DNA of 64,000 nucleotides from Nemertoderma westbladi (taxonomy: Eukaryota > Animalia > Xenacoelomorpha). Both the position numbers and the translations under genes were made by a program. The DNA lies in assembly GCA_032718475.1 (NCBI GenBank), contig JAUCBJ010007486.1:1-64000 (forward strand). The letters run 5' to 3'. The notes below the pieces were generated by a model. The model saw nothing but the letters and a program-made list of their open reading frames with translations, made no database searches and was not told the DNA's origin. This document shows, piece after piece, positions 15,978 to 48,463 of the stretch; position 1 is the stretch's first letter; every line of letters begins with the position of its first letter.

Positions 15978-15980
15978 AAA

Positions 15981-16514
15981 TATTGGAGATCGAAGACAAA
16001 GGCGAGGATGTTTACTTTGTTCCGGATCGACAACCTTTGACCGGAGAGGACGACATCGTTTTAGACATTGGGAAGGAAGGGAGTGCGAAGCCGATTGGAG
16101 ACCTCATATACGAGAGGGCCTGGTTTCCGCAAGCTCGTAGATGCAAGTTGTGCGGCAGCACAAGGCATAGTCAAAGGTCGTGCGATGCTGTAGTAGAGGC
16201 GGCGCATAAGGTTTGCCGTTGGTGCAACGAGACTGACCATTCATTCCTTACGTGCACTGTCTTCATTTCTCAGTGTGGATATTGTGGAGTAAAGGGACAC
16301 CATAGTGCAAAATGTCAACTGCGTGATGATTCTTTCCAGAATCATAGCGCCAACCTCCTCCGGGAAATGTTAGACAAGTGGGAGGGTGTGGCTGACTACC
16401 ACATCCAGGCGCAAATGCGGTGGTTGCCGTTTAAAGCAGGATACGGGTTCTGGGCGGTAGATCCATCACACGTTGCATATGAACCGTATTTGCAATCCCT
16501 ACCGCAATACCAGG
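15981..16514 (+). pseudogene. Element D accessory gene, part 2: three CCHC zinc knuckles
   Basis: CKLCGSTRHSQRSC, CRWCNETDHSFLTC, CGYCGVKGHHSAKC; removing Academ restores the frame (...RTREEI-LEIEDKG...). Confidence 0.8.
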
Positions 16515-20489: not shown

Positions 20490-21141
20490 GGGTGGAGATT
20501 TGTAGTCTCCTGTCTCGTTTCTAGTCTCCTCAAGGAGCACGAGACGTTGTACAGGTCTGTCTACGGTACGACCGTCGATAGTCCTTACAGTAACTGTTCT
20601 TATTACACCAGATGTAGGGTGCGTGGTCAAAATGACTCCCAGTCAGCCAAAACCATCTTTTCAGATTGGCTTCAGCCAATAAAACATGGTCACCACGTCT
20701 TAAACATCGGGTATTAAGATACCAAGAGGTTCTGGTCGAAATAGAGGGCAAATAATCTTTCTGCCATATTTCCCAGAATTTATTTGCAAGCAATTGAGTG
20801 ATTTTCCAAGCTTTGTTGCCGTATCCGTCGCTATTAACGGGTACCGAAATGGGCAACAATGTCGTCGGCGCCTGCATAAGCAGGTGCGCTGGTGTCAAGG
20901 CAAACTGTGCGTCGTTATCGTCTGGGATCAAAGCGATCGGTCTAGTGTTCAAAATCGCTTCGATTTCTATTAACAACGTCGTCAGTTGGTCGTCTGTCAA
21001 TATGTGTTGCGTCGGTACGACTTTAGCCATAGCTGTTTTTATTGAGTCAATCAGCCTTTCCCAAACGCCGCCTCTCCACGGACTGTCTGGAGTATTGAAA
21101 TACCAAACAATTCGGTGAGGACGTAGTTCCTCGGTAATCTG
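20490..21141 (-). pseudogene. Element A integrase, C-terminal part
   Basis: QITEEL...WYFNTPDSPWRGGVWERLI...EIEAILNTRP...LTPAHLL...FWEIW..DYL continues in frame from 33243 once element B is removed. Confidence 0.9.
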
Positions 21142-22409
21142 TGTACGCGCTTTTGAAGACCTTTAGCAGTTTAACCTGCCAAAATTTATATGTCTTTTGG
21201 TTTATAAATCGACTCTAGAAGATGACAATATTTAATACCAATAAACACAACATTAGCAGAAGCCAGCCTAGTGCGCGTCCATTCACCCGCTGGATAATCC
21301 CGGGAGACTGGATTCTGTCGGCTTAGATTATTATTGCAGTGAAGCTTACGGTATTGTATTATTCGATTGATCGTTAATAATTAATTTCTGACTAATATTA
21401 TTCACTTTCGGGAAATATTAACAGTTCCTTTAGGACGTGGCGCTCTATCTAAGTAAACAGAGATATGACTTATACTAATCACAACGGTAAGTCGGTAAGG
21501 CTTATGATTCACGTATGAGGCGCATTCTTTAGGAAATGCTTAGTTATCAGCCACAATCATGCACACTACCGGTAACACACAATACTGCTCACTAATTTGC
21601 CGACCGTCAATGAATTTTATCATATATAAAGAGAATAGCAACGGACTCATGTAGGGCTTATCAAATAGCATTAAATTCAATACACACCACAATAATATAA
21701 GTCGCAATCGCTATATATATAACCCGCCTCTCTAACCTGTAGTGTATCAAGAAAATTGGGAAATTTGGGTTCTTTATAAATGTTCTCCAAATAATATTCA
21801 ATCCACTGATATAAGATATGACAACAGTAAAAACATTAAGACGGTAGGTTAAGATATGATATGAACAGATATGTACAGCGATATGCACTGATATGGACCG
21901 ATAACAGTCATACGCTCTATAATTTAAGCCTACTAATGTTTCTTCTAAATTATGAAAAGAATTAACTCTAGAGCCGGTGTTTCTGGCTTAGACAGCAATA
22001 ACAACAAAGTATCAGTAAAAACAGTAAGACTGAACACTCTCCTTATAATCGACCGAAAAGCTACACGTCGACAGGAAAAATCGCTCTGATTGGCTCAAGC
22101 CAAACAAAGAACCATGCGTCCAATGGCTGTTTCCATGTCAGCAACCAGCTGTTAGATGTCGTAATATGAATCATCACGGCTAAGCTGTGAAAGGTATTTG
22201 GTGCATTGTAGGTTTTTTGCCTTACCATGTCTGCCAAAACACGTATATAGTAGAATGACTTTTATGTCCGTTAAAACACCTATAACGGTACCTTGCGGGC
22301 GAGGGGAATATTTATACAGTTAGAGAACCTTTTAGAGTATTCCAGCGCCTGGGGGGGAAACTGGATTGCGAAGCAAAGGGGCCAGTTATATCCCACAGAA
22401 GCTTTTACA
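21142..22409 (-). repeat. 3' LTR of element B
   Basis: Direct repeat of 32002-33242; PPT-like GGGAGCGG on the minus strand at 22410-22417. Confidence 0.95.
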
Positions 22410-22487
22410 CCGCTCCCAGAAAATGGGATTTGAGTCTATAAAATATACAAAATCACAGTTTCTAATATACGTAAATACTCTAAACAG

Positions 22488-23936
22488 TTAGTCTTTCTTG
22501 CGCGGACGGCGTTTACGCAGTTTCTTAAAGCTAGCCAGAGTCCTTTTCTCTTTGGGGCGAGCCACTTCACAAGGAGGGCTATAACTCCTGGGTGAAGGGT
22601 GCAATATGATTGCATCAGAGGATGTAGGATTATGGTCGGTGTATCCGCCAGTCGAAGTACCGGGTTGATTGACATCAACGTCAGGTGAGAGGGGTCTAAC
22701 GGCTTTGAGAGCTCGTTTCAAGACAGCCGCTCTTACGGGTCCTTTACGAGTGGTCTGAACGAGGGCCGTGGGTGGACCATAGGCAGTTAGAAACCTCCGG
22801 GGTTTAATGGTCCTTTCCAACTCGCGTTCGCGGGCTCGGTATTCGTAAGTCCGTCGATATACTTCCTGTAACTCGGGGTGTGAGTTAACAAATAAGTCTC
22901 CATAGTCCGGATCCTGACGGATATAATTGATTAAGTTATAGGAATGAAGGTCGCTAGGATTAACACTCCTGAGAAATTTGCGTACGAACTTGGTTGAAAT
23001 ACATTCTCCGACGCGCTTCAGTGGTTCGTAACTCGATATGCGTGATTTCTGTTCGACAGAAGCGAATAGATAAGGATGGAACGCATAAATTCCTTCGTAA
23101 GCGTGTCCGGGATAATAGCGATGGCGCGAATCACAATGTAAATCAGCGTTCGCTTCCCAAGCTCTGATGTAACGTAGTGTGATCATTTCATCTACGCTTT
23201 CCAAATCGCAATTAAAAGGGCAATCGAAACTGGCGTGTCCCTTTAGTTGACAATGGTGACATTGAGTCATAAATTGAGGGCAAACCGCAAAAATGTGCAA
23301 GTTATTGAGTCTGCAATACGCACAATAAATTTCCATCACCGGTTATTCGTGGAAATAGGAACAGCGGACGTTTGTGTACATGGGCGTAACATGGTCTCCC
23401 GATGCGCACAACCGACAACGTTGCCGAGAAACACAGTTGGCATGGCGATAATTGTACGCAGTGAGACACTGTGGACCTCGATACCATTCTAGGATATAAT
23501 CGTTGTCGCTGTTCCGGGCGCGATAGGCTGAATCTCCTCAGATTCTAGACATATTGGTTTGTCTTCCCAGTCTGTTACGAATAGAATTTTCGTGATCTAT
23601 TCTCGGTTTATCGTTACGACTCCGCTGGGTATGATATTTAAATAGAACCATTTCCCTTTCGGTGTCTACATCGTCCGTATCATGTAAATCGATAGGATGG
23701 CCGGTAGTTAGGAAGTCCATATACGTATCGTTACGATTCGTATAGCGAGTGGTGAATTTTCGATAGTCCAATTCACGCGCAAGTTGCTCTTGGGACATCG
23801 GCGGTTCGATATAACGACCATCGTCCTCCGTAATGGTTGGATCGGCTTCACCGCGTATTAAGCTATCCACAAATGCTTGTAAAGGTAGAGTATATCGCTC
23901 CCTAATACCAAGATCATCTTCTATCAACTCCGTCAT
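22488..23936 (-). pseudogene. Element B accessory 3' ORF: unrelated N-terminus plus CCHC knuckle module, two in-frame stops
   Basis: ORFs 23538-23936 and 22488-23339 share one frame; CRLC..., CAYC..H..C, CHHCQLKGHASFDC; C-terminal part closely matches 57436-58540. Confidence 0.8.
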
Positions 23937-25566
23937 ATCTGCTATCTGAGTTTATTAATATCAAATAAGTTTATATTTAGGCGAGCGGGCGTCGCTGCCT
24001 ACTTCTCTTTGCCCCCGGACAGTGGGATTCTCAGCGCCGATGTACCGTCGTCGCGGTGTTTACGCCAACATGTAGCAACATCACGACAACGATAACCGGC
24101 ACAAGTCACTCCACTGTCCGTCCCAAAGGCTTGAATCCACTTTAGGTTCTTTCTATAGGAGAGTTGGGCTACTTTCACAATTGCGACTAGCTACTGTAAA
24201 CACACCTTAGCAGTAACATTCACCTACAAACGCACAAATTCCACACAACTGTCACCAATTGTACACATACAGGCCATTTGTCCGTTAGTCAGTGCCTTCC
24301 AGAATGTCACGTTATTACTGTGTATCCTTGGATACTAACAGTGTGCTATGTATTCTCTATGCTATGCAATGTGACAAGCTTTCTATTGTTCTCTTAACTT
24401 GCTTCTAATTCTAGCGTGGGTGTTGCTATGGTGACATTATGGAAAGCTAGCGGTAGAATTAGGGTAATTCTCATGCATACAGATCTGGGATGCTATTTAA
24501 TAATAATTCTTTAATTGTCAATATCCTCTTTATGCATGATTTTATTAATTTTATCGGCTATTGACTATATGTTGGAGATTCTCGCACTCTAATACACTCA
24601 ATAGGATGAATCTCCGCTCCCATGATCTATTAATTAATGGAATTTTGGGAATGTTATAAATTGTACAAAATGACAATTTATGAAATTCATTTAAAATATG
24701 AATTTGAATTTATTCCCGTGAATTTTATTATTTGATGTTAAAATTGACACAATTTGATTCCAGAGCAGGTCTGGGGACATAGGATCCTTAATTCTATAAA
24801 ATTGTCTTTTAAGAGTATCGGTAAGTGCTGCGATATCTTAATTGACTAGAAATTTCAAAGGACCTGAATTTTACAGATTTTTACTAAATATTAAATTAAT
24901 ATTTAAGATGGGCACCGATTTATTCCAGAACTTGTCTGGGGACGTTAACCATTGATTCTAGAATTTGTCTTTCAAGTATATCGGTGGGTGCCGCGATATC
25001 TTAATCGACTAGAATTACAGATGGTCAAAAAGTTTAACAGATTTATTTGCGTTTTACGCTACTGTTAGAGGGACATCACGCTACTATATGTATTATTATA
25101 TATGGTATGAGAGCAATATCGCACGAAGCAATGTCAGTGTGAAGAGGCAAGTCGTTTCCAAGGTCTACCCAGAGCTTGGTTTAGCCGAGACACGAGGATC
25201 TGAACTTTGCATTCCTAATACTCTGCCTACCAATAATACTTAAGTATAGTAGGAGCTTTATTGTACTTTAATAAGTACGGACATTTCATCTTACTGTAGT
25301 CACGTATTTATAATATGATACGGACAGTAAGGAAAGAGAAAAAATAATTATTTCTCGCCGTCGCACTAAATATTATATATTATAAGTAATTACGTACGTA
25401 ATAAACACTAATATATTGCACTAATCTACTAGATAATCACTAAAAGAACATTCTACTAAATAAAATTAAAGAAAACGATTATAATAAAATTACATAATAA
25501 TACATACATAAATATAAAATAAAACAAATATAAAATGATATAGTCACACGCCCACTCCATATGTTA

Positions 25567-26214
25567 TTACGTTATGGAGTCCCTAGATATTTGTCGGATT
25601 AGGGAAGTGGTCGTAGGAAGAGTATCTTGCCTTCCATAGTTTCCGGACAGTTTTTGGTCTCTTTCCCGTAAACATAAACGACTAGCTGGGCGATTGAGTT
25701 GTTGTGTTACTTTCTCCGCTCCCTTGGCCTGTCTAATCTCCGCCGGGGTAAGATAAGGAGGCCATTCTTCTTCTTCTTTACTTAAGAAGTCGGATCCACC
25801 TAACCAACCTGGAGTATCTATCAGTTCTTGAGGAGTTGCTCCTCTGGAAGCGATGTCGGCTGGATTAATCGTCCCAAGGCAATGTCTCCATTGATCTACA
25901 TTGGAGTTAATATCGTCATTATCTGAGGAGTATGGTGTTCCCTCAGTTGGATCGTCCACATCACTGCTCTCCACTTCCCATTCCTTTACTTGGTATACCG
26001 GTTGTTGAGGTAATCTCTCTTTGAGAGTTCTACGGGAAGGGCCAGTGAAGTACCAACCTACTCTAGTTCTTACCGCATAGGTTTGCAGTGGCTGCGGTTG
26101 AGCAGGCCGTTTCTCCAATGTCTCGAGCGCCTCATGCGCGTTTTGGCCGATGAGTATTTGCACTCCAGGATAATCTGTCTGGAATCGAGGTATCTTAAGA
26201 TCAACCTCAATCAA
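25567..26214 (-). pseudogene. Element B pol remnant (post-protease segment joined to RNase H tail)
   Basis: QILIGQN...AVRTRVGWYFTGP then directly QWRHCLGTINPADIASRG...WLGGSDFL.K..EEWP; no RT between them. Confidence 0.8.
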
Positions 26215-26235
26215 TCCTCAAACCTCAAACCAATC

Positions 26236-29200
26236 TCAAACCTGTATAATTCCTGACATATTCAATTTAGTCCGGAATTTGGGTTGTCCAGCAAAAATAT
26301 CTTCGGCTAGTTCTTGATCGATGAATGTTCCTGTGCTGCCGGAGTCAAGGAGGGCATTCACTATGTAACTTTTGTTGGGACCGTGAACTCTTACCTGCAC
26401 TACAGGAAATTCTCTGATTCCTACGTTGGAAGTTGGAGCTTTCCAAGATGGTTGTTTGGCAAAAGTAGTTGGGGGAAACTCATTGTTGGTGTCCTTTTCA
26501 TAAGTAAGTGCTCGATACACTGAGGTATTTATTAGGTAACAGGATTCGATGGCGTCGGAGAATTCGTCAGTATAGAATCCTTCCATCTCAGACTCTTGAT
26601 CAGTGTCATTTACATCACTGAATTGGACATGTAGTTCGGGCTCACTTACCTGACTCGGGTTGTTTCGTTCGAACTCACTGTGTAACAAGATGTGATGTTT
26701 CGCGCCACACTTTGCACACTTTACGTCGGAGTAACAGGTTCGCCGTTGGTGTCCTGATCTGAGGCAATTATAGCATAACCGCTTATTCCATAGGACTGTA
26801 CGTCTGTCTACAAGGGATTTCTTTAGAAATTCAGCACACGCACTCAAACGGTGGGGCCCGTCGCACAGCGCACATTTTGGTTTGATATTACTCACCTTAC
26901 CTTGGGTAACGTTATGCACTCTCGTTCTTTCTTCGGGCTTTCTTCCGTGAATTCTCTTAGGAGACGTAGGAGGGGTTGTTGTTACCTGTTCTCTCCTGTC
27001 ACTGATTCGAGACTTGTATTTACTTACGTCTTTATAGGTCTTATTGTCATAGTAAGATTTTACTGTGTCTTTCCCGCTGTCCTCTTCTTGAGAAGCTTGG
27101 CTTTCGCCGTCGTCAGTATAACACACTGGTATTATCCTTCTCCTAGAAACGGGTTTCTCACTTACCTTATTTTCCAATGTTTTCTCTCTGGACTGCTTTA
27201 TGAGTTGTAATTTTACTTCATTATCTAAGAAGGACGTGAGATCAGCCATGGTAGGGCTTCGTCGTTGCTGCTCATTCATATACAACACTTTCTTGTCCCA
27301 GCGTGTACATACTCCACCCTTTGGTAAAGTAGAGACTACGGCTCCAATAACCATGGAACTCTGATATTCATGAGACTTACCTAACCAGTCCAATTGTCTA
27401 CAGATTTCCTGAATTTCATCGGAAAACTCTATAATCCCGCTACTAAGGAAGTGTCGAGGGGCCACTAATTTTGCATACAAATATTTAGCTATATTGTCCT
27501 TGTTACCATACCTGATGTTTAATGTATCCCAAACTTGTCTTAATCCTTCTGGATGTCCAATAAACTTTAACGCCATTAACTTGGGAGGTCCTTCCAAGCA
27601 TTTGATGAGGAACCTAAGTTTCTCTCCGTTAGATAGCACAGAGTGCTGTATGCTGTCTTTGTAATATTCATTGAAGGGTAACCATTTCATCTCATCTCCA
27701 TTGAATTTGACGATCTCTCCCACTTTGACCGCTTGGCGGGCTTCTGTTCTAGCCATCTGACGCGTAAAGCTCTCTTGGGCCATCGTGTTATTTAATATCG
27801 AATTATCGGTATATAAATTTCTCGGATCATTATCAGGTCTATAAGGAATATCATTAATAACAGGTCTATAATCACCCTTAATAGGGTTTGCTATAGGGGT
27901 TTCTACTTCACTAGCAGTATAGATGCGTGTAGGCTCCACACCTTGCGCATGTAATACTTCAGACCTAACAGGTTGACACAATGTTACAGGGGGTATTGGT
28001 ATGCCCTTTTGTATATTGACTAATTTGTCGCGTTCCAGCGCGATACTTTGCTGCACTTCTTGCAACTCTGCCCTACTTTCCCTTACTGTTCCCTTAAGCT
28101 GGTGGACAGTCTCCTGCATCTGTCCGAGCAGGAGGTTCATTCCCCGCCGTCCCTCCTCTACCCACTCAACCGCCGAAGCGGGAGTCGCCAACATTGTAGC
28201 GGGTTGACGCGGGACGATGGGAGACAAATCTTTGATTCCTCTCTCAATGCTCAGGACAGGGGTATTTGCATGGACTGTTCCACCGGGTACAGGCAGTGTA
28301 GTACTGTGTAAAGGGAATTTAGAGTTAAGCTCTGGAAGTGCAGGGGTCTCTAGCACAGGAGTGACTTTGGGAACGACAGGCCTAATTATTTCAGGCTCAT
28401 CGACTATAGTAGGGAGTCTTTTGACCTGAAGAAATTGTTCTATGGGTTCTACACTACCTAAGTCTGTGCTAGTTAGTTGTCTTTTAACAGCTGGGGGCAA
28501 ATCAGGCAATTTGTGACGGTAAGATGTTTTTCTACGCCTGCTTAGACGAGATCTATTTCCTCCGCCTTCAGGATCGGTGGTTTCGCTTTCCTCCGATGAA
28601 GTATAGCCCTGGCGTTTGGGAGTAGATTTTCTCATCATCTGCATGTGACTAGCAGTTAACTTTTTATTTATGTTGTCTTGCGTCTCTTGCAGCTTCTCCA
28701 ACTCCAGTTGGGTAGTCTGCTCAGACGCTCTTCGTTCTGCTTCTGCTACTGCCTTTTTCGCCCTTGCTTCTGCTTCTGCCATGGCCGCCTTTGCTTCTGC
28801 CGCCGCTGCCTTTCTTTGTGCTTCTGCTTCTGCCATGGCCGCCTTTGCTTCTGCCGCCGCTGCCTTTCTTTGTATTTCTGCTTCTGCCATGGCCGCCTTT
28901 CTTTGTATTTCTGCTTCTGCCCTTGCCGCTGCCTCCTTTCTTTCTGCTTCGGCTTCTGCCATGGCCGCCACCCTTTGTTCCTCTATCCGTCTTTTCTTTA
29001 CTTGTTCTTCTTGGACTCTAACGAGTCGGAGTTTCTCATCAAACTCAGCTTGGTTAGCAGCTAACATTTCAGCATCGATTGCGTCCAACACAAGCTTGGT
29101 TCCTTCACTATTAGGGCGAAGTCCAGACAGTCGTCTCCTCAACTCTTCGTCTCCTATGAATCGCTGATAGTCTGACAGATAGATGTCAATGGCGTCTCTA

Positions 29201-29748
29201 GTTCGCGGCTTCTCTGCTGCTGTTAATTCGCTTTCCACTTCGCTTTCCACCTCGCTTTCCACTTCGCTTTCCACCTCACTTTCCACTTCGCTTTCCACCT
29301 CACTTTCCACTTCGCTTTCCACCTCACTTTCCACTTGAGAAGAAGTGGCGTCGGTTGATTCTTCATAGGTTGGCCGCTCATCATAAACCGTATCCGCCAT
29401 CTTCGCTCCGCGTTCGGGCGTCCGCTCAACAGTATCCGAACTACTGGAGCTATCGGGCCGCTGAGAACTAGGTTCTTGGCTAGGAGGTTGCTGCTGTTTT
29501 ATAGCTTCTTCTTGATCCCGCTTGACTTGGGCCCGAGTGCCTATGGCAGACCAACGGCGCTTCACTAACTTCGCAAATTGCGAAATCTTTTCTACCAACC
29601 TAGGTTCTGACACAACCACTGCAGGGGTTGCCCTTCTTACCGTATGAGGGGTTTCAGACCTTGGTCTGGGATTCTCTACACTTTGATCTGAGAAACAGGC
29701 TGTTGTTTCTAGGAGACTATCTGACAGAGTTTGCCTTGTGTCAGCCAT
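26236..29748 (-). CDS. Element B Gag-protease polyprotein (1170 aa)
   Basis: Coiled-coil N-terminus, capsid-like KFNGDEMKWLPF...EKLRFLIKCLEG, BEL triple knuckle (CALCDGPH..C / CYNCLRSGH...C / CAKCGAKHHILLH), protease ALLDSGS. Confidence 0.9.
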   Translation of the reverse strand: MADTRQTLSDSLLETTACFSDQSVENPRPRSETPHTVRRATPAVVVSEPRLVEKISQFAKLVKRRWSAIGTRAQVKRDQEEAIKQQQPPSQEPSSQRPDSSSSSDTVERTPERGAKMADTVYDERPTYEESTDATSSQVESEVESEVESEVESEVESEVESEVESEVESEVESELTAAEKPRTRDAIDIYLSDYQRFIGDEELRRRLSGLRPNSEGTKLVLDAIDAEMLAANQAEFDEKLRLVRVQEEQVKKRRIEEQRVAAMAEAEAERKEAAARAEAEIQRKAAMAEAEIQRKAAAAEAKAAMAEAEAQRKAAAAEAKAAMAEAEARAKKAVAEAERRASEQTTQLELEKLQETQDNINKKLTASHMQMMRKSTPKRQGYTSSEESETTDPEGGGNRSRLSRRRKTSYRHKLPDLPPAVKRQLTSTDLGSVEPIEQFLQVKRLPTIVDEPEIIRPVVPKVTPVLETPALPELNSKFPLHSTTLPVPGGTVHANTPVLSIERGIKDLSPIVPRQPATMLATPASAVEWVEEGRRGMNLLLGQMQETVHQLKGTVRESRAELQEVQQSIALERDKLVNIQKGIPIPPVTLCQPVRSEVLHAQGVEPTRIYTASEVETPIANPIKGDYRPVINDIPYRPDNDPRNLYTDNSILNNTMAQESFTRQMARTEARQAVKVGEIVKFNGDEMKWLPFNEYYKDSIQHSVLSNGEKLRFLIKCLEGPPKLMALKFIGHPEGLRQVWDTLNIRYGNKDNIAKYLYAKLVAPRHFLSSGIIEFSDEIQEICRQLDWLGKSHEYQSSMVIGAVVSTLPKGGVCTRWDKKVLYMNEQQRRSPTMADLTSFLDNEVKLQLIKQSREKTLENKVSEKPVSRRRIIPVCYTDDGESQASQEEDSGKDTVKSYYDNKTYKDVSKYKSRISDRREQVTTTPPTSPKRIHGRKPEERTRVHNVTQGKVSNIKPKCALCDGPHRLSACAEFLKKSLVDRRTVLWNKRLCYNCLRSGHQRRTCYSDVKCAKCGAKHHILLHSEFERNNPSQVSEPELHVQFSDVNDTDQESEMEGFYTDEFSDAIESCYLINTSVYRALTYEKDTNNEFPPTTFAKQPSWKAPTSNVGIREFPVVQVRVHGPNKSYIVNALLDSGSTGTFIDQELAEDIFAGQPKFRTKLNMSGIIQV

Positions 29749-31019
29749 GTTTGATTGTACAGTCGAATGCCTACTGCTATATTACAGTTAAAGCAAGTCT
29801 AGTAATTCAGTATCACTGTTAGCCTAATAATTAATTACCGATACTGCTACTCAGTGTAGCGTGATATATATATAATATATTAGAATACCGGTATGCTTAT
29901 AATATATATATAAGTATTATTACAGACTAGATTTGTCACAGAGTACCGGTATATAATTTTAGCACAAATATATATAAATATATAATAGGCCTATCGTGAA
30001 TACCGGTATGCAGCTTACACTTATAGTATATAAGTATAATTCTGGACTAGAATTAATTACAGAATACCAGTATGATTTCAGCACAAATCCATAGAAATAA
30101 ATATAATAAGCCTATGGTAAATACCGGTATGTCAATTATTTTAGAATAATTGATTTTCTGAATATTTTAGTGTTACTTGGTTACTTTAACTTACTTTGTT
30201 ACCGTTATTTAAGCAGTAGTCCAACTGATATTGAGACCTAGTTGTTGTATGGTAGGCCTACTATTTATAAATCGTTTGAGTTGATTTATAATAGATATAT
30301 ACCCATTTAAAAGGGGTTTTGTCAAGATTTGAAATAAATGTTATTATTTCTGGGGGAGTCACTACACAGAAGCTGTGCGCTCTCAGTGAAGTGCTACCTA
30401 TGGGACACTAAAACAGATAATTCTAATTTACCTAAGTTACTTAATACTACAAATTACTTACGATACGGGTGAGATTAAATCTCTAATTTAACACAACAAA
30501 AATATTACGTACGAAATTTTTAGGGTAATTTTACAGGAAGTCTACAAACCAGCCTAACAAAGGGTTAGAATTCTGGTTATTACAACGGACGGGGTACTAC
30601 GGTATTTGAAAATAATAAGTAGTAGTAAATATATTGCGTTGTCCAGATAGGAAAATACCACCGCCTGACGACCTATAACCGTATCGCTATAGGTACTACG
30701 TTATGTATCACGGAGTGTTCCTACCCAGAAGTTAATAGAGCTAACGAATGTGCCTATCAACCACTTTACAACACAAATATACTGCCTACACACTAATTAC
30801 TTCGGAAAGCACTGTACACTAAACCCTAAATTAGGTACAAGTACTGGTACAACAAATAATCAGTAGTTAAATATACTTGAACAGTTAAAAGAACCACGGC
30901 ATCTGCTGGAGTGACCGAAGCACAAAGTCACCAGTCTTTACCTACGCCAAGCAGCCCGTGTAGTACCGGGGTTAATTTAACTATAACGGTATGTGTAACA
31001 AACACAATTACTGTAGGAA

Positions 31020-31600
31020 TAAACTTGGGGACATGAATGTTGCGAATAATCGCATAAACTCTGAATAATAAATATTACGCTACCCGTACAGAATACCCAA
31101 ACAAATACAAACCAAAATGCTGGCAGACTACCACCAAGCCTAAATAAACTACTGTATGTGCAGATTCCAAAACGGTTAGTTAGTATGCGTTCTAACACGG
31201 TAGTACGACTTATTCTTTAAGAGGGGATTGACCTTACAGTTATGACTGCCCCAACTTACTAACTGGCACTTTATCAGACAAACTCTACACAAGCAGCAAT
31301 CTCTTCAGACCTAGTAATAGCTAGACAACAATCCAGCCTACAAAATATCTGAGTAATAACTATTACGGTACCTGGACAGACTACACAAACAAACACAGGC
31401 CTAAACGCTGGCAGAATACTGTCAAGCCTAAATAAACTACAGTATGTGCAGATTCCAAAATCGTTAGTTAGTATGCGTTCTAACACGGTAGTACGACTTA
31501 TTCTTTAAGAGGGGGTTGACCTTACACTCAAGTTGCCCCAACTTACTAACTGGCACTCTATCGGACAAACTCCACACACGCCGTAATCTCTCCAAACCCA
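31020..31600. repeat. ~290-bp tandem duplication in the element B leader (with shorter repeats at ~29840-30130 and ~31810-31935)
   Basis: GCCTAAATAAACTAC...GTAGTACGACTTATTCTTTAAGAGGGG...AACTGGCACT occurs at ~31138 and ~31426. Confidence 0.8.
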
Positions 31601-31990
31601 ACAACAATCCGACAACAGTCTGGCCTACAGTTATCTGAACAATCTGAGCAGACTTACACGTCTTCAGCTCAATATTAACTTACTAGGAAATAAAACCGAC
31701 AGAAATAGGTAAAATCTCAATAAAAACCAGGGCTGCAGTCCCTGATTAAATACTAAGACCTACCGGTATACAATAATCAAAATCGAATAATACTAATGTA
31801 CTTATACTGGAAGTACCGGTTAGGACAGTTGGGCCTACAGGCCTACAGAAGTACCGGTTCTGGCAGTTGGACCTACGGACCTACAGCAGTACCGGTTCTG
31901 GCAGTTGGGCCTACTGACCTACAGAAGTACCGGTTCAGGTTTACCGGTCGATCGGTACTTTCAACTTTATTGCTTACTGCAATAAAGTCA

Positions 31991-32001
31991 ATGACTGTTA
32001 T
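31991..32001 (-). promoter_or_regulatory. PBS-position sequence of element B, complementary to its own LTR
   Basis: Minus-strand ATAACAGTCAT abuts the 5' LTR; its reverse complement lies in the LTR at 32735-32745 and 21901-21911. Confidence 0.7.
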
Positions 32002-33242
32002 TGTACGCGCTTTTGAAGACCTTTAGCAGTTTAACCTGCCAAAATTTATATGTCTTTTGGTTTATAAATCGACTCTTGAAGATGACAATATTTAATACCA
32101 ATAAACACAACATTAGCAGAAGCCAGCCTAGTGCGCGTCCATTCACCCGCTGGATAATCCCGGGAGACTGGATTCTGTCGGCTTAGATTATTATTGCAGT
32201 GAAGCTTACGGTATTGTATTATTCGATTGATCGTTAATAATTAATTTCTGACTAATATTATTCACTTTCGGGAAATATTAACAGTTCCTTTAGGACGTGG
32301 CGCTCTATCTAAGTAAACAGAGATATGACTTATACTAATCACAACGGTAAGTCGGTAAGGCTTATGATTCACGTATGAGGCGCATTCTTTAGGAAATGCT
32401 TAGTTATCAGCCACAATACTGCTCACTAATTTGCCGACCGTCAATGAATTTTATCATATATAAAGAGAATAGCAACGGACTCATGTAGGGCTTATCAAAT
32501 AGCATTAAATTCAATACACACCACAATAATATAAGTCGCAATCGCTATATATATAACCCGCCTCTCTAACCTGTAGTGTATCAAGAAAATTGGGAAATTT
32601 GGGTTCTTTATAAATGTTCTCCAAATAATATTCAATCCACTGATATAAGATATGACAACAGTAAAAACATTAAGACGGTAGGTTAAGATATGATATGAAC
32701 AGATATGTACAGCGATATGCACTGATATGGACCGATAACAGTCATACGCTCTATAATTTAAGCCTACTAATGTTTCTTCTAAAGTATGAAAAGAATTAAC
32801 TCTAGAGCCGGTGTTTCTGGCTTAGACAGCAATAACAACAAAGTATCAGTAAAAACAGTAAGACTGAACACTCTCCTTATAATCGACCGAAAAGCTACAC
32901 GTCGACAGGAAAAATCGCTCTGATTGGCTCAAGCCAAACAAAGAACCATGCGTCCAATGGCTGTTTCCATGTCAGCAACCAGCTGTTAGATGTCGTAATA
33001 TGAATCATCACGGCTAAGCTGTGAAAGGTATTTGGTACATTATAGGTTTTTTGCCTTACCATGTCCGCCAAAACACGTATATAGTAGAATGACTTTTATG
33101 TCCGTTAAAACACCTATAACGGTACCTTGCGGGCGAGGGGAATATTTATACAGTTAGAGAACCTTTTAGAGTATTCCAGCGCCTGGGGGGAAACTGGATT
33201 GCGAAGCAAAGGGGCCAGTTATATCCCACAGAAGCTTTTACA
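32002..33242 (-). repeat. 5' LTR of element B
   Basis: Direct repeat of 21142-22409. Confidence 0.95.
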
Positions 33243-36200
33243 ATCTGGTTTTGGTCCAACTTTCTCAAAGCTCTGGTTATATCGTTCCGTGCACCCACAA
33301 AGTTTGTCCCTTGGTCGCAATAAATGGATTTGACCAATCCACGTCTAGCGATAAATCGCCGTAAGGCTAGGATAAAGGCATTGGTGGTCAAATCTGTCAC
33401 ACGCTCTATATGGACAGCTCTGCTGGCCATGCAAGTGAAGATCAATCCCCAACGTTTTACCTGTACCCTTCCGCGTTTTGCGATTATGGGTCCAAAACAG
33501 TCTATCCCTGTCTCAGTGAAAGGGGGTCTAAATGCCTGTAATCTCGCTAGTGGTAGTTCACTCATTTCTTGGTGTCCTATCCTCGCGTGCACCTTCTTAC
33601 AAATCATACAGTTCCGTGTTACCGAACTCAGTGCCTTACTAGGTCTAATCAGTACAATCCTCGATCGTAAGTGTGATAGACAGTGGTGTCTACCCACGTG
33701 TTTGAGTTGTACATGTGCGTCCAGTATCATAGCGCGCTGTAATTCATGGTGTTGCGGTATGATGATAGGATACCTAAAGTCTAGTGCAAAGTCGATGTTT
33801 TGGAGTCTGGACTTGTGACAAAGTAAGCCCCGGTAAATAATCGGACTCCAACTCAAAATCGGTGAAGACTTAATCTGTTTACCTTGGTTGATCGCTGTGA
33901 ACTCTCGTGTGAAATATCGCAATTGATAATGTCTAATGATATCAACTTCGCAATGACCAATTTCCTTTAAGGTAAGTCTTCTAGGAAAGTCGCGTTTGCC
34001 TCTGGCATATTGTCTCAAACGTTTGAGCCATGCTAACTTGCGGCACGCGTCAGTCCATGATCTAGTTAGGTTTACTATCCGGTCAACGTAAGTGTTAGTG
34101 ACGTCATCAGGTAAGGTATAGTCGTATTGTGGATACTTGTCTGGACTTGGTAGGCCCACGGGCCTTCCGGTGGGTTTGTCTGAGTCCTCAAGTACGTCAA
34201 TCTTTACGGTCTTACCTTTACCGTCCGCTCCTAGTGTGTCGACTGGCAGTAACGGTTTCAACTCTACAGTGTCAGTGTGTTCCTGTGAGCCTGTAAGCTT
34301 CCTAACCTTAGTCACACGTTTACCTGTAGGTGGTAAGTCAAGTACCTTCTTTGAGCGGAGTGTGATTGCTGTGGCCACACCTTTGTCGTCCAAAGAAGTC
34401 AAATCCGGTAAGTCTCTAAATTTCCGCTCCAATGGGTCTTCTAGTGGAGTGTCTAGTAGACAGTCTGGTGAAGCGTCCGGTGAACAGTCTGGTGAGACGT
34501 CTGGTGAGACATAGCGCGGAACTTCCAGCGAAATGTCCTGTCGTCGGTCCCAAGGTCTGTCTGGCGTAACTTCTATCAGAAAGTCTGGTCCAAAGTCTGG
34601 TCTAAAGTCTGGTGGACAGTCTGTCGAGATGTCTGGTGGAAAGTCTGGTGAGACGTCTGGTAGACATTCTGTCGAGAGTTCCATCAAACAATCTGGCGAA
34701 CAATCCGGAGAACAATCTGGTGTCACTTCTGGTGAATAATCTGGCGAGTAATCTGGTGAACAATCCGGCGAAATGTCTGGTGAAATCTCCCGCGGAACAT
34801 CCGGTGAAAGATTCGTACAAGCGTCTGGTCGAGTGTCTGGTGAGATGTCTGGCGTAATGTCAGGTCTGGCGTCCAGGTCATCAGATTTCATCCGTCCTTG
34901 TTTCCTCTTGACCTTGGCGTTGGCTTTCGCTTTGGACTTGACAACCTTGTCGATTTTTATCTCGGCACCCTCTGGTATGGTGTTGGTTGTCGCGTCGAAT
35001 AACAGTGGCTATTCATCTGATGGTCGCTGTAGGAAATCGGGTCCTCTAAACCAAAAGGATTTATTGTCCGGTTTACAAAAGACAAGCGGTTGCATCCCCC
35101 GTGACGCGATGTCAGCTGGGTTCAGCTTCCCTGGACCGTGACGCCAATCTTGTTTGAGCGACCGGTCTAATATTTCAGCCCGTCTGTTGGCTACGAAAGT
35201 CTTGAACTCAAATGCTTCGTTGTTTATGTACCAAAGTACCAACGTCGCATCCGTCCAATATGTGACCTTCAAGTTAGCCTCCAGCTCGCGTTGAACTAGA
35301 CTGACAATATCAGTGGATATCGTCCCGGCTTGCAGCTCCCCACGAGGTACAGTCATATACTTCAACGGCATTGTTCTAGCCCTAGAAGTAACGAGAGACA
35401 CATCGTAGCTGTCCGATGTCACTTGTCGTCTAAGGTACAAAGTAACCCCCAATCCATCCTTGCTAGCGTCACTAAAGCTGTGAAGCTCTAAATCGGCTGG
35501 AAAGGTGGTTTGCAAAGGAAAGTATACCCTCGGTATGGTATAGTCTTGTAGGAACATCAGTTGGGCTTCCCAGTCCCTCCATCGCTCAGCTAACTTTTCT
35601 GGGATGGGATCGTCCCATTCCAGTCCGGCTTGCCAAATGCTGCGGAGTATGATCCTAGCATGTAGGATCACTGGACTAATGAAACACAATGGGTCATACA
35701 ATCGACTCATGGTCGATAAGCAAGTCCTCTTAGTGAGAGGTCTAGTCTGGTCGTTGGACCTTACACGTACCCTAAAATTGTCGGTGTTAGGGTCCCAACT
35801 AAGTCCTAATACTTTGGTCGTCGGCAGAGGTTCTAGGTCTAAGTCTAAATCACCTCCACTGCGATCCGTCGGGTCAAATGAGTTCACCAGTTCGGGTTCG
35901 TTGGAAGCGAACTTCGTCAGGTGGAATCCGCCCTCAGCGAGACAATCCTGGAGTTGGTGTGCTACGGTTGTAGCGCGCTCCAAGGTGTCACAACTCTTGA
36001 GGCCGTCATCCACGTAGAAATCTCGTTCCACTGTCCGAACTACTTCTGGATCAAATTGGTCTCGTCTGTCCAATGCGGTCTGCTTTAAGGCGTACATGGT
36101 GCAGTTGGGGCTGTCCCTGGCTCCAAATACTCTTACCTGCATTTGGTAAGTTTCTGGCGGAAGTTCTAAGTTTCCGTCCGGATACCAAAGAAACCTCAAG

Positions 36201-37180
36201 CTGTCCCTGTCCCGCTCCAAAGCCTTAACCTGGTGAAACATGGCCTCTACGTCACAGGTGAAAGCCACTTTGCGTTGTCTAAAACGCATTAGGACTCCCA
36301 TGAGGTAATTGTTCATATTCGGCCCGTCCATCAGTTCGCTGTTCATAGACATCCCTTGGTAAAGCGCAGCGCAGTCGTTGACTACACGCACCTTGCCAGG
36401 TTTGTCCGGGTGTCGAACAAAATGATGTGGCAGGTAATATGTCTGGTCTGTGGTTACCTCGGGATTTAACATCCTAATGGCGTATCCCTTTTGGAGATAC
36501 GTCTGAAGTTGTGCATTGTATTGCATATGGGCCGTCTCGTCTCGCAACAATCACTGCCTTATTGATTTGAGTCGCCTCAAAGCAAGCGGGTAATTGTTAA
36601 CGAGTTTAGGTTGTCCATTGCGCCACAACATACCAACCTCATAGTGGCCATTCGCGGTCTGGCGAATGGTATCTCTCATAATATTTAATGACCGTTTTTC
36701 CTGTTCTGACATAGCGGTCTCGTAACTACCGGGTTCTGCTGAGTCCTGTTCCAACCATTGAATGGTCCGTTCAGTCAGCAGTCGGTCTAGCGCTGCTTGC
36801 ACTGCGCCCTGGTCCTCGTCCACGTCTTCGTCCGCTGCGGTGGCTAGTGTCAATGCGTCTGGTAGGCTCGCAAGCCTTCCGGTGTCACTAGTCGGCGTCG
36901 AATCGTCGTGCGGCGGTTTGACAACTTCTTGATCTATCGGTAGGCTCGCAAGCCTTCCAAGATCAACGACCGGTGTCGAAGCCTGGTGGGTGGGGTCAAT
37001 GACCTTTGGATTTTTCGGTAGGCTCGCAAGCCTTCCAAAATCCTCGTTCATCGAGTCATCCACAGCAACAACCCTTTGGTCTTCGGTAGTCAATACAACC
37101 TGGTTTACTGCAAGTAGTTGTAAGTCAGAGGTCCGTGTGGTCGTGTCCAGATCAGTTACGTCAGTATCGGTGGCGTCTGC
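33243..37180 (-). pseudogene. Element A pol: RT, RNase H and integrase N-terminus/core, with stops
   Basis: YYLPHH...KVRVVNDCAA...CDVEAMFHQV...FGARDSP...FYVDD; HSFSDAS...VPRGELQA...WTDA...NPADIASRG; H-H-C-C (DAHVQLKH...CMICK), TGIDCFGP, IYCDQGTNFVGA. Confidence 0.95.
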
Positions 37181-43263: not shown

Positions 43264-43535
43264 AATACTTTTTATACCGGTGGTTTGGGCTATATATATA
43301 TATTAGAACCTTATTTAGGACATCAATATGTAATTTGTGTATATAATGCGTATTACGTGTAAAACATTTAATTCTGGTCCACGTTTAGTGTATCATATAT
43401 GACATGTGTTATACCGGATATATACTATAATAGATTATAGGTAGATACCGGTATATACCACATTGGTTGCTGGGGAATGTAATTTGAATTTTAGCGGCCA
43501 CTTAAGATAAATATTGCAACATAACACATTGTATA

Positions 43536-46500
43536 ATGCAACAAATTGCGTCAGACACTAATTCTAGTGGTAGTGCGACGACGGCTGTTGGCATTGGGTG
43601 CGGTCTTTGTTTTTCAACTTTTCAAAATTCAGATTTAATTATCAACTGCAATCTTTGTAAACAGAAATATCACCGACAATGTGGTTCATTCTTTGAGACT
43701 ATCGATTTTTCAGACACTACCATTTTATCACACTGGTGCAATTTTTGTTATCATTATCTATTTCCTTTTGGTAGTGTTGAAAATGACGATCTCGATATAT
43801 TTTCTAATGAAACGGGTGAAGTTAATTGTGAAGACATACAGGCTGCTGGCAACATCTTTAGTGATATTAATCCTGACGATAACTTGAATTGCAATTTGAT
43901 TCTAGGGGATTACTTTAATGAAACAATATTTGATAACCAATTTTACGGAAATGACAGCAGATCGAATTTTTCATTAATGCATTTAAATTGCAGGAGCTTA
44001 AACGCAAATATATGTGCAATAACAAATTTTTTGGAATCTATGAATGCCAATTTCGACATTCTGACTTTTTCTGAAACGTTTTTAACTAAAGATAGTGTAT
44101 TAAATGAAGTTGCCGTTCGTGGTTTTAAGGAACCTTACTGTGATTTTCGAAAATGGGGTAAGAGACTAGCCAGAGGAGGCACGGCTATTTATGCGCGCTC
44201 CGATTTAGAAACATCAATACGACCCGACCTTCATTTCAACGGCCCTGAAAATTGCTGGATAGAAGTGGCGAGGCCTCACCCTAATAAGCCCTTAATAATT
44301 GGATGTATTTATCGCTCAGACGAAATAGAATTTGATAGTTTTAATAAAGGTTTTAATGATACACTTTCCAAATTGGCCTCAACAAATTACGACGTTGTTA
44401 TAACCGGTGATTATAATATTGATGTTTCTAAACCAAATAAGCCTCGTACTAGTGAATATATTAATACAATATCTTCTAACGGCTTCACTCAAACTATAAA
44501 CCAACATACTCGTATCACTCCCTATTCTAGATCTACTATAGACCACATCCTTTGTAACATACACTCATCTATTTGCTCACCTGGTGTATTTTTAACAGAA
44601 ACTGGTACTACCGACCACCTTCCTACTTTCATGGTTTTAACTGATTATTCTATGTTTTTTCTTCCTCCTGATACAAAGCGCACTTACGATTACTCGCAAT
44701 TTAATAAAGATAGGTTTACTAATGATGTACGAAACTTTTCCTTTAGATATTCAGCTAATAACACCCCTGACAAACTTAAACTAGAAAGTTTTTATGATGA
44801 CTTCACAAATATTTGCAAGGATAACCTTCCCTCCGTGGTTGTACAAAAACGAGATGTTCCAAAGAAATCTTGGCTCACAAAATCGCTAATTTTAGGAATA
44901 AAAAAGAAAAACTTATTATACGCAATATATTCTAAATCACCCACAACTGAAAATCATAATCGTTATAAATTATACAGAAATAAATTAACCACACTACTTA
45001 GAGCAGCTGAAAAACAATACTACAACTCCGAATTCAATAAAAATTCTAATAATATGCGTAAGACTTGGAAAACATTAAACTCTTTATTACACCGTTCTGC
45101 AAAAACATCAACACCAAAGAGATTAAACGTGGACAAAGACGGGGAAATTATTTCTCTCTCCAATCCAGCTGATATAGCCAACGCCTTTAACAATTTCTTT
45201 TCCAACATTGGTCCTCAACTTGCTTCACAATTTGCTTCAAGTTCTCGTTGTCCTACTCGCCATGTAAGACATTCCAAATCCAATTCCTTCGGACTTTCAG
45301 AAACATCTCCCGCTGAAATTCATTACATCATTTTACAATTAGATGAGAAGTGCGCCTCCAATGACGATTTTCCGATTTCTTTAGTAAAGCTTGCGGCCCC
45401 ATTTATATCTACTCATTTATGTAGCTTGATTAATCTCAGTTTACGACTAGGGCATTTTCCTGATTGTCTTAAGTTAGCAAAGGTCATTCCAGCTTATAAG
45501 GGTGGTAACCCATTTCTTCCTACAAACTACCGTCCAATCTCCCTCCTCCCTGTTTTCCATAAAATTTTCGAAACAGTTTTATACAACCAGCTTATAGCAT
45601 ACCTTAATAAATTCAATGTAATTTCGCGTAATCAATTCGGCTTCCGGAAAAAATTCACCACATCATATGCAGTAATAAATATAGTGGAGTCAATTCGAAA
45701 TGCTCTCGATAATCATCAATCCTCTTGTTTAGTATATATAGACCTCCGTAAGGCATTTGATACTCTTGACCACTCCATCCTTATAAAGAAACTTCAGTCA
45801 TATGGTATACGCGGTACCCCTCTGTCGATTTTCTCAGATTACTTATCCAATCGTAAACAGTTTGTTTCATTAGGTGTTACGTCATCTTTAGTTAATTCAA
45901 TCACCTGTGGTATCCCGCAAGGTTCGGTACTAGGCCCAATTCTTTTTTTACTTTATATAAATGATCTCCCAAATGCAACCTCTCTCATTGCCACTCTGTT
46001 TGCAGACGATACATCTCTCATGTTCCACGATAGTAACATAACCAGATTAACTAATACTATAAGTACCGAAAGTAATTTAATTAATGATTGGCTGATAGAT
46101 AATAAATTAACCTTAAACACCGATAAAACAGAATACTCCATATTTACATTCTCGCAAAATTTCAACTTACCAAGCACAACAATTAATATCAACAACAAAC
46201 CCATCAGATACACGTCCGCTGCAAAATACTTAGGCATAATTATAGATGATAAACTCACATTTAAGGCGCACATTAAATACATACTTAAAAAAATTTCTAA
46301 AACAGGTGGACTGTTCTATAAACTTCGACATATACTTTCTAGAGAGTTACTCCGCATGCTTTTTAATACATTAATTTATCCTTACATTTTCTATGGCTTG
46401 ATTGTTTGGGGCGGCACTTACAAGTCAAACACAGATCCTTTGAAAATAAAAATCAATAAGATATTGCGTTGTATCACATTTAATCATTCTCAATCCTCAT

Positions 46501-46826
46501 CCTATCCCATCTACCAACAATTACGTATCCTACCTCTAGATCTCCTCTATAAATACCAGGTGCTAATACTCATGTTTGAAGTCCATAATAATCCATCTCA
46601 CCCTCTAGCTTACCTCTTTACTAAAGCCTCTTCGGTTCACTCATATAATACTCGCTCTGCTTCCTCTGGCCTGTATCATTTACCTCCGGCTCGTTTGGAT
46701 GTTCGCCATCTTTCATTATCTATGCAAGGGCCACTTTTGTGGAACTCATTATCACAACTTATTAGGGACAGTCGAAACCTGGCGATATTTAAGAAAAAAT
46801 TAAAATACCACTTACTGCAGATATGA
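43536..46826 (+). CDS. LINE ORF2: PHD-like finger, APE endonuclease and reverse transcriptase (1096 aa, intact)
   Basis: CGLC...CNLCKQKYHRQC...CNFC; HLNCRSL, SET, GDYN, IDH, TDH; YRPISLL, QFGFR, DLRKAFD, GIPQGSVLGP, FADDT, KYLG. Confidence 0.95.
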   Translation: MQQIASDTNSSGSATTAVGIGCGLCFSTFQNSDLIINCNLCKQKYHRQCGSFFETIDFSDTTILSHWCNFCYHYLFPFGSVENDDLDIFSNETGEVNCEDIQAAGNIFSDINPDDNLNCNLILGDYFNETIFDNQFYGNDSRSNFSLMHLNCRSLNANICAITNFLESMNANFDILTFSETFLTKDSVLNEVAVRGFKEPYCDFRKWGKRLARGGTAIYARSDLETSIRPDLHFNGPENCWIEVARPHPNKPLIIGCIYRSDEIEFDSFNKGFNDTLSKLASTNYDVVITGDYNIDVSKPNKPRTSEYINTISSNGFTQTINQHTRITPYSRSTIDHILCNIHSSICSPGVFLTETGTTDHLPTFMVLTDYSMFFLPPDTKRTYDYSQFNKDRFTNDVRNFSFRYSANNTPDKLKLESFYDDFTNICKDNLPSVVVQKRDVPKKSWLTKSLILGIKKKNLLYAIYSKSPTTENHNRYKLYRNKLTTLLRAAEKQYYNSEFNKNSNNMRKTWKTLNSLLHRSAKTSTPKRLNVDKDGEIISLSNPADIANAFNNFFSNIGPQLASQFASSSRCPTRHVRHSKSNSFGLSETSPAEIHYIILQLDEKCASNDDFPISLVKLAAPFISTHLCSLINLSLRLGHFPDCLKLAKVIPAYKGGNPFLPTNYRPISLLPVFHKIFETVLYNQLIAYLNKFNVISRNQFGFRKKFTTSYAVINIVESIRNALDNHQSSCLVYIDLRKAFDTLDHSILIKKLQSYGIRGTPLSIFSDYLSNRKQFVSLGVTSSLVNSITCGIPQGSVLGPILFLLYINDLPNATSLIATLFADDTSLMFHDSNITRLTNTISTESNLINDWLIDNKLTLNTDKTEYSIFTFSQNFNLPSTTININNKPIRYTSAAKYLGIIIDDKLTFKAHIKYILKKISKTGGLFYKLRHILSRELLRMLFNTLIYPYIFYGLIVWGGTYKSNTDPLKIKINKILRCITFNHSQSSSYPIYQQLRILPLDLLYKYQVLILMFEVHNNPSHPLAYLFTKASSVHSYNTRSASSGLYHLPPARLDVRHLSLSMQGPLLWNSLSQLIRDSRNLAIFKKKLKYHLLQI

Positions 46827-48453
46827 TTAAACCATTTCAATTTCAATAGCATACATATATTTTTTCATTATCCTTTTTTCATATACATTCTCCCCAATTG
46901 GTTATCAACAACTTGCGTTATATAAATATATTTTCCTTTACATATTTTGCGTCATATATATAGTTTCATACTTTTTTTCTTTACATATACATTCTCCCCT
47001 ATTGGTTATCATCAGTTTGCTATGCAGTCTTGTACATACCACAAATTTATTTTTTTACATGCAGGAAAAAACAAATATTTATAAAATTCCGACAGCAGTC
47101 AACCGCACCGCACCCACCTATCTGTATAATTAAATTTACTTTAAACATTCTAGAACTCTCCAGATGCAGGGGTGAGCTAAAACTACACTAGCTATGCTAT
47201 AGCGGAAGCTCACACCAATCAACCCAGCAATCAATTTTGTAGGGTATTGTGCGTTATTTTTATTTTATAATTTTGGAGGAAATAAATAAATAAGAATAAA
47301 AAATAAGCGGGACGGTAAGGAAATCTTCGATTCTGCCGTCGCCATGCGTTGCGGCTTCCGGTATTTCCGTTCGGGGTACCGGCGATGCACGCGGTGTGAC
47401 ATCGGTGGAATCTCGGGTTCTCCTTCTCGGTTCGTCTACTGTCGATCTGTCCGGGTCGCACGAGTCATAGTCGGTAGGTGGGTATCGAGTCGAATGGGGT
47501 GTGTCACTCATGTCTTATTATATACGTCAAGTACGGGTAATAAAATGTCAAAGTATCTGAGTGTTGAAATGTCAAACTTACCTTGATATATATAGTATAT
47601 ATATACCCTAACTGGTACAAATAAATCAACAAGTCAGAAATGTCGAAATGTCAAAATGTCAAAATGTCAAACTTACCTTGATATATATATATATCATATA
47701 TATACCCTAACCGGTACAAATAAAACTAACAAAGTATATAATAAAATAAGTAATAATCTAGCCTACCGGCTAAATTTGTACGAATAAATGAGATAACGGT
47801 ATACGTTACCAAAATGTAGATCAACAAGTACAAATAATAGGCAAAACAGCAACGTCTAATGGGAAAATAAGTACCAACAACACTACTATTAGACAGTGAA
47901 ACCCACAAATTGTGAGTACTACTGTGCTTTCTTAAGTTTGAACGACACGAGTCGTAAAACTTACGTTCCTTTGATCTTCCAGTCGTGCAAATTCCCAAAT
48001 ACAAACCGGACGTGGGTCGTTCCGTTTTTCGGCGGCGTGGACGAATTTATTGTCTCCCAAACTTTGCGAAAAGCGGTCTAATCCTCGAAGCGGTCCAGAA
48101 ATGAGTCCTTGAGTCCTGAAAGGTCGAAGGTGAGAGTTTTACTTCTACACTACAAAAAATCTTCCTAAGTACCGATACAACTTGGTCTTTAAACCCTATG
48201 TACCTTTTCAAGTACCGAAAAGTAACACCGCATACACACGGCGTAAAACAAGATGCTACAAACTAACTATTAGCTAGTCAAATATTAAATACGAAACTAC
48301 TAGCTACCCTAAAGGCCTACTGAAGCAGGGGACGTTTTACAAATTACTAAATTTACTAACCTTAAATTTTAAATATCTCCTACTTACAATAGCTAACAGT
48401 ATGTGAGAGACCTCACGGTTGGGATATATATTTCCTACTTTCGTAAGAATAAA

Positions 48454-48463
48454 TATACCTCAC
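48454..48463 (-). promoter_or_regulatory. PBS-position sequence of element A, complementary to its own LTR
   Basis: Minus-strand GTGAGGTATA abuts the 5' LTR; its reverse complement lies in the LTR at 49803-49812 and 17870-17879. Confidence 0.7.

Follow-up and report, generated by a model that had tools for sequence, protein, structure and literature searches.

Two BEL/Pao LTR retrotransposons of Nemertoderma westbladi, here called A and B, and relatives from other animals are likely to start reverse transcription without a tRNA, using as primer a short segment of their own transcript that, as judged from the sequences, probably lies inside R and would be cut out by RNase H as in Tf1. Compared with shuffled and control sequences, the complementarity on which this proposal is built is a real feature rather than a chance one, and it is common to a wide set of BEL/Pao elements. 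Both elements lie in the window, which is the whole 64,000-nt stretch analysed (contig JAUCBJ010007486.1, positions 1 to 64,000). Element B, in which the complementarity was first noticed, has the following parts.

21142-33242, minus strand: element B, an internally deleted BEL/Pao LTR retrotransposon that interrupts the integrase gene of element A
33243-33247, minus strand: target site duplication (TSD) of B, CAGAT (5 bp), on the 5' side; second copy at 21137-21141
32002-33242, minus strand: 5' LTR of B, 1,241 nt, TGTA...TACA
32735-32745, minus strand: candidate self-primer of B, ATGACTGTTAT, LTR positions 498-508, the exact reverse complement of ATAACAGTCAT
31991-32001, minus strand: primer binding site (PBS) position of B, ATAACAGTCAT, directly after the 5' LTR, no TGG
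31961-31991, minus strand: predicted 13-bp hairpin just 3' of the PBS position (z -3.5; equalled by 1 of 200 shuffles)
31781-31793, minus strand: second leader segment of 13 nt, complementary to LTR positions 1015-1027 (32228-32216)
26236-29781, minus strand: gag-protease ORF with DUF1759, three Cys-His knuckles and a DSG protease motif
25735-25905, minus strand: RNase H remnant (end of the BEL/Pao RNase H region)
22410-22419, minus strand: polypurine tract, ending GGAGCGG as in A
21142-22409, minus strand: 3' LTR of B, 1,268 nt
21901-21911, minus strand: second copy of the candidate self-primer, in the 3' LTR

The LTRs of B are 5 substitutions and 2 indels apart, and this near identity, together with the flanking CAGAT duplication, shows that the insertion is young and that the LTR end is certain. 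The element keeps gag and protease (DUF1759 at E 8e-12 in a domain search, with the knuckles and the DSG motif visible), while RT, integrase and most of RNase H are missing; alignment of its interior with three intact relatives likewise showed RT and integrase to be gone. Since B is internally deleted, its enzymes would have to come in trans. No homologs of the gag region of B were found in a search limited to longer proteins, and a 19-nt LTR-end pattern had no match in metagenome or viral contigs.

The initial annotation had stated that no TGG follows the 5' LTR of B, that the 11 nt found there instead have an exact reverse complement within the LTR, and that the duplex stops exactly at the LTR boundary. 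All three statements were confirmed: ATAACAGTCAT adjoins the ...TACA end, the complement is present in both LTRs, and the boundary is fixed independently by the second LTR and the CAGAT duplication. All 11 bases pair at offset 0, with no contiguous extension on either flank. The chance of such a match had been put there at about 3e-4 for uniform base composition; the 11-mer was present in 20 of 20,000 dinucleotide shuffles of its LTR, about three times that rate. Of the 9,583 11-mers in the interior of B, five find a complement in the LTR: the word at the PBS position, three that overlap within a single 13-mer, and one further word. Local hairpins around the candidate primers were no better than those of shuffles. 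At about 1 in 1,000 per element, and across many windows, the single match in B could be a chance product of a large scan; this doubt is removed by its replication in element A and in the relatives.

Element A provides an independent case within the same window.

16515-50708, minus strand: element A, the BEL/Pao element that hosts B, gag-pol broken; LTRs 50708-48464 and 18770-16515, TSD CCTGG
49803-49812, minus strand: candidate self-primer of A, TATACCTCAC, LTR positions 897-906; also at 17870-17879 in the 3' LTR
48453-48463, minus strand: PBS position of A, GTGAGGTATAT, no TGG; a predicted hairpin is next to it
35009-36550, minus strand: RT-RNase H frame of A, Pfam Peptidase_A17 (E 4e-40), YVDD; the query for relatives

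The bases that follow the LTR of A, GTGAGGTATA, form 10 of 10 pairs at offset 0 with both LTRs, and the eleventh pair is G-U. This 10-mer was found in 4 of 1,000 LTR shuffles; with offsets and splicing allowed, the match of A was reached by 6 of 150 shuffles and at 4 of 100 control positions. The PBS sequences of A and B are unrelated, their proteins are 22-44% identical, and their LTRs do not align, sharing only one 27-nt motif. Both matches together would be expected by chance about 4 times in a million. The gag of A contains DUF1759 (E 5e-7), its pol has the order PR-RT-RH-IN, and in the tree A forms a long branch among the 16 relatives described below. The 27-nt motif (50370-50344 in A and 33184-33158 in B, minus strand) lies upstream of a TATA word in both LTRs and has an alternating GAA/TTC pattern that resembles a heat-shock element. 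The U3 of A also has a stretch (50571-50511, minus strand) with A-box- and B-box-like words that we regard as tRNA-like; it was not called by ARAGORN or Rfam and is not complementary to the PBS of A.

A further line of evidence came from the family of B itself, of which a sister family is represented in the window by a single LTR.

56207-57383, minus strand: LTR C, sister family of B, ~72-75% identical to the LTR of B; the only LTR of C in the window, its PBS lying outside
56930-56940, minus strand: candidate self-primer of C, ATAACTGTTAT, one change from B, at the base paired with 31993

The diverged LTR C had been said to keep a corresponding sequence at the equivalent place, at ~56930, and does so: in the alignment this place reads ATAACAGTTAT on the plus strand (56930-56940). 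Between B and C the 11-mer is not much better conserved than its surroundings. Contigs from four public runs (X1, X3, X4 and X5) were aligned onto 31940-32060, which covers the LTR end and the leader. Six variable places were listed across these 121 bases, and among the 11 bases of the PBS only 31993 was listed as variable. The variant at 31993 accounted for 54,594 of 74,814 depth units (73%) on 28 contigs in X1, for all depth on 15 contigs in X3, and for 9.3 of 12.9 depth units (72%) in X4; X5 has no depth at this position. A PBS with the variant is the exact complement of the C 11-mer, the G-C pair of B becoming an A-U pair in the C type. We estimate the chance that a variant would fit C by position and base alone at a few percent, and the U at the variable PBS position can also pair G-U with the primer of B. 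Co-variation of the PBS and LTR 11-mers, a check that the initial annotation had called for, finds partial support: the sole listed PBS variant fits the primer of C, but the variant and a C-type primer were not seen on one molecule. No variants inside the LTR 11-mer were present among the matches listed for the public contigs, which carries no weight either way. At least three further subfamilies, visible as loose contig ends at 31940-32060, differ after the LTR end, one of them almost wholly; none starts with TGG, and some retain a hairpin after the LTR end.

From 16515 to 64000 the window is a nested cluster of elements: A contains B and a LINE with RT and endonuclease (43506-46826, plus strand), the integrase of a further BEL remnant (56205-55945) is interrupted by LTR C, and a gypsy pol lies at about 62000-64000 (plus strand). 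One host-type gene fragment was seen, a frame with a fibrinogen C-terminal domain (10640-11293, plus strand; E 5e-43), which fits an animal host. The B/C family has extra ORFs between pol and the 3' LTR (60032-58242 and 58533-57436, minus strand), with remnants in B at 23951-22488 and related frames at 12006-12509 and 15974-16519 (plus strand). For the extra ORF of 596 aa, ESM Atlas gave a weak resemblance to clusters of 3'-5' exonucleases (score 0.90-0.91, 150-154 shared features), which is a lead only; the ORF of 365 aa is rich in Cys and His. Trimming of a primer end by an exonuclease is conceivable, although nothing ties the extra ORF to priming. Searches with the extra ORF of C found no homologs and no PDB or Pfam match, and its predicted fold had a pLDDT of 29.

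To collect relatives from other animals, the RT-RNase H of A was aligned with 42 of at least 120 homologs and used in a search of contigs. Named protein matches came from cnidarians, hemichordates, molluscs, tunicates and fish. The search gave 99 loci that were 33-46% identical, 80 of them (of at least 551) from a partial scan of metagenome contigs and 19 from genome contigs; viral contigs gave no relatives. Fifty loci lacked paired LTRs, and in 30 the contig end truncated a repeat, leaving 19 that were examined. Of these, L075 and L076 were dropped for their unclear ends and L093 because its pair does not flank the match, so that 16 relatives remained. For L031, L067, L071 and L097 the boundaries were adjusted manually by a few bases ahead of scoring, and sister copies support those of L031, L067 and L097. 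A match was defined as a perfect run of at least 10 nt at offsets 0-3; matching across splice junctions was a later addition to the test. The loci L081-L099 come from contigs that are filed as bacterial MAGs; they contain BEL/Pao sequences, some of which are whole elements with both LTRs (L082, L083), and most likely represent contamination from an animal host.

A TGG start was present in none of the 16 relatives. Eleven have a perfect match of 10-15 nt to their own LTR, each reached by at most 4 of 300 shuffles. The match is contiguous in L006, L036 and L054, and in the other eight (L011, L097, L032, L034, L067, L078, L082 and L083) it exists only across a predicted GT..AG junction with consensus-like sites. 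Eight of the 11 positive relatives leave 1-3 unpaired bases beside the LTR end. The remaining five relatives (L017, L031, L035, L071 and L090) failed the test; matches of L017, L035 and L071 at larger offsets were recognised after the fact and left out of the count. A run of 10 nt was reached at 5 of 1,600 control positions in the same elements and by 1 of 302 pairings between elements. That one pairing, of the PBS of B with the LTR of A, was a 10-mer that needs splicing and lies at offset 3; it does not exceed the control rate and was rejected. Together with the joint probability for A and B, the contrast between the relatives and their control positions leaves a chance match a negligible explanation.

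The 11 positive relatives represent about eight separate lineages, the kin being L011/L097, L082/L083 and L032/L036, the last pair weakly supported. Between the sisters L082 and L083, three bases of exon 1 differ, as do the three PBS bases that pair with them. In L036 (LTRs 1-326 and 6694-7103) the 5' LTR carries the acceptor and intron sequence, while the 3' LTR is intron-less and has a contiguous 11-nt match, ~125 nt past a TATA box. L036 supports, at the level of DNA, the reality of the predicted intron and the view that contiguous primers in R can arise by intron loss; its mixed LTRs may reflect natural copying of a spliced LTR, or else two copies joined in one contig. Splice-made primers were not found for A and B (best 5-6 nt). 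The sole AATAAA or ATTAAA of the LTR is 3' of the match in 10 of the 11 positive relatives, L006 having none, and this is the order that strand transfer requires.

The position of the primer in the transcript was assessed from promoter and splice motifs in the LTRs and from predicted RNA folding.

33150-33143, minus strand: TATAAA of B, with TATA-like words further downstream at 32556-32545 and 32463-32455; motifs only
32918-32927, minus strand: CCAAT box present in both B and C, ~180 nt 5' of the 11-mer; motif only
50310-50318, minus strand: TATA box of A (LTR position 391), after three CCAAT words; motif only
LTR positions 744 and 793 (donors) and 846 and 865 (acceptors) of A, minus strand: splice-like sites, all upstream of the primer; motifs only

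To the initial annotation the primer seemed to lie inside R and not at the cap. This is supported for A, whose TATA box lies about 500 nt upstream of the primer and, with the donor-like sites, would put it about 470 nt inside the predicted transcript, and for the relatives, on account of their splice junctions and of L036, but B is ambiguous. Self-priming could take another form in B and C, in which the transcripts start at the 11-mer and the primer is the capped 5' end exactly as in Tf1. Predicted folding of B RNAs agrees with that form, the duplex having a P of 0.77 if the RNA starts at LTR position 498, the first base of the 11-mer, and near 0 for upstream starts. So do the identity of 17 of 20 bases between B and C in the block just 5' of the 11-mer and the return of similarity, in diverged contigs of three runs, at 32734, the 3' edge of the 11-mer. 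However, a TATA word ~30 nt upstream of the 11-mer is absent in both B and C, where CCAAT and TATAAA lie 180-400 nt upstream, and a cap position is excluded for the match in A and in the relatives whose match is spliced; we consider a cap-site primer in B and C rather doubtful. The TATA-like words downstream of the 11-mer of B could also place it in U3. For A, the predicted duplex P was near 0 in all four starts tried, long-range predictions of this kind being unreliable. In A, B, L006, L036 and L054, flanking helices like those of Tf1 (the pretzel) were sought over the 80 nt that follow the primer on its 3' side, and no pairing beat shuffles; helices further away may exist, as the 13-nt match between LTR and leader in B suggests. 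Taking these motifs and predictions together, we favour with some reserve an internal primer site for B as well.

The duplex might also be a structural or regulatory helix, acting in packaging, dimerisation or a switch between spliced and unspliced RNA, with another molecule or site as the primer. Consistent with such a role, B has the second complementarity of 13 nt between LTR and leader, the LTR side of which (32228-32216) is also retained in LTR C; hairpins follow the PBS position in both A and B; the leader of A repeats the PBS core 47 nt downstream; and many relatives have the unpaired bases at the LTR end. Nevertheless, the match occupies the one place where minus-strand priming must occur, a tRNA site is found there in 0 of 18 elements, and its uninterrupted Watson-Crick runs of 10-15 nt fit the 11 nt of Tf1, which together make a purely structural helix unlikely. 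That an internal fragment of a tRNA serves as the primer and the LTR match is a coincidence appears more unlikely still. The primer of B and C holds CTGTTA, which we presume to be the pattern of the Asn anticodon loop and which makes a tRNA-Asn half the concrete candidate, and both PBS variants could be paired by a tRNA that carries G at the variable position. Half-tRNA priming exists in some copia lineages and yields a PBS without TGG (PMC6317226, in the sections available). A tRNA fragment leaves the LTR copy, element A and the splice-junction matches unexplained, however, and the many PBS sequences of the relatives match their own LTR and not those of others. ARAGORN found no tRNA genes in the window or in the 99 loci, its mitochondrial mode giving noise only, and Rfam had no match in the window. 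The claim of the initial annotation that this lineage primes without a tRNA is well supported, though as an inference only, by the variant at 31993, by element A and by 11 of 16 relatives that match with different sequences of their own.

Under self-priming, the primer stretch would be transcribed and would precede the poly(A) signal, probably within R, and it would anneal to the PBS in the particle. The RNase H of the RT would then cut at the 3' end of the primer, as in Tf1, leaving a 3'-OH from which U5 and the R sequence downstream of the cut could be copied; for B, which is without RT, the enzyme would be supplied by an intact family member. The strong-stop DNA would transfer to R at the 3' end, and this copy would be the template for restoring the primer and all sequence upstream of it. 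Plus-strand synthesis, we infer, would copy the attached primer back into the PBS. Such copy-back would account for a PBS that drifts between families yet stays Watson-Crick complementary, even to a splice junction that exists only in RNA. A broader reading is that a widespread branch of BEL/Pao elements in aquatic animals dropped tRNA priming in favour of a primer cut inside its own transcript, built in many families by host splicing of an LTR intron and copied back to the PBS in each cycle, the contiguous primers of A and B being intron-free forms; for this we see the case as evenly balanced. If self-priming holds here, a third LTR superfamily has evolved it, and the form is new: the primer comes from within the transcript and is in many cases assembled by splicing, which would tie reverse transcription to splicing. 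It would also account for BEL/Pao elements without a recognisable PBS and supply a rule for annotation tools, and such elements may escape host control via tRNA fragments.

According to the ICTV description, replication of Belpaoviridae is poorly understood and is primed by a host tRNA, the 18-nt PBS being complementary to the 3' end of either tRNA-Arg or tRNA-Gly (PMC8742986). Like members of this family (Semotivirus), A and B show TG..CA LTRs, a 5-bp TSD, a polypurine tract and a gag with DUF1759; the three Cys-His knuckles and the DSG protease motif are visible in B, which of the later domains retains only the BEL-type RNase H remnant, and A has the YVDD RT and the order PR-RT-RH-IN. Unlike the ICTV description, A, B and all 16 relatives have no TGG-type PBS, and the LTR of A, at 2.2 kb, exceeds the 0.2-1.2 kb given for the family (PMC8742986). 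The membership of A and B in BEL/Pao follows from their proteins, and the PBS is a described trait in which they differ. Cer7 of Caenorhabditis elegans, also a BEL/Pao element, is reported to encode a tRNA-like complement of its own PBS. This segment of Cer7 is longer and lies outside the LTR, whereas the complement in A and B is 10-11 nt, lies in the LTR and has no tRNA or Rfam match. A full-text literature search, which took in few subscription papers and part of PMC8220671, found no self-priming BEL/Pao element; the words primer, PBS, tRNA and priming are absent from the text of PMC3118150, and PBS and tRNA from that of PMC554778.

Self-priming has been described for the Tf1/sushi group and predicted for the Tcn1 clade and the copia TAR lineage (accessible parts of PMC6317226, PMC4600332, PMC3601003 and PMC6934838). 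For the Tcn1 clade (Ty3/gypsy) and the TAR lineage the prediction was made from complementarity between LTR and PBS alone, which implies that self-priming arose more than once (PMC6317226, in part). These are plant gypsy and copia lineages, and the portion of PMC6317226 available does not treat BEL/Pao. Tf1 is the precedent for self-priming with an RNase H cut at the 3' end of the primer (PMC7175516, as excerpted). Tf1 and Tf2 of Schizosaccharomyces pombe, Tj1 and Tosmo1-3, of the Tf1/sushi group, have no tRNA PBS and carry an 11-nt stretch of the 5' LTR complementary to the bases beside the LTR end (PMC7175516, PMC4600332 and 10.1101/2022.12.06.519325, each in part), and the available text of the last describes a pretzel structure for priming of the Tf1 type. 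Like these elements, A and B have a PBS without TGG and about 11 nt of complementarity to their own 5' LTR. Unlike the Tf1/sushi elements, which are Ty3/gypsy chromoviruses, their proteins are of BEL/Pao type, and pretzel helices were not found near the primer. A and B resemble Tf1 in the sequence logic of self-priming but stand outside the Tf1/sushi group, and their primer is probably internal.
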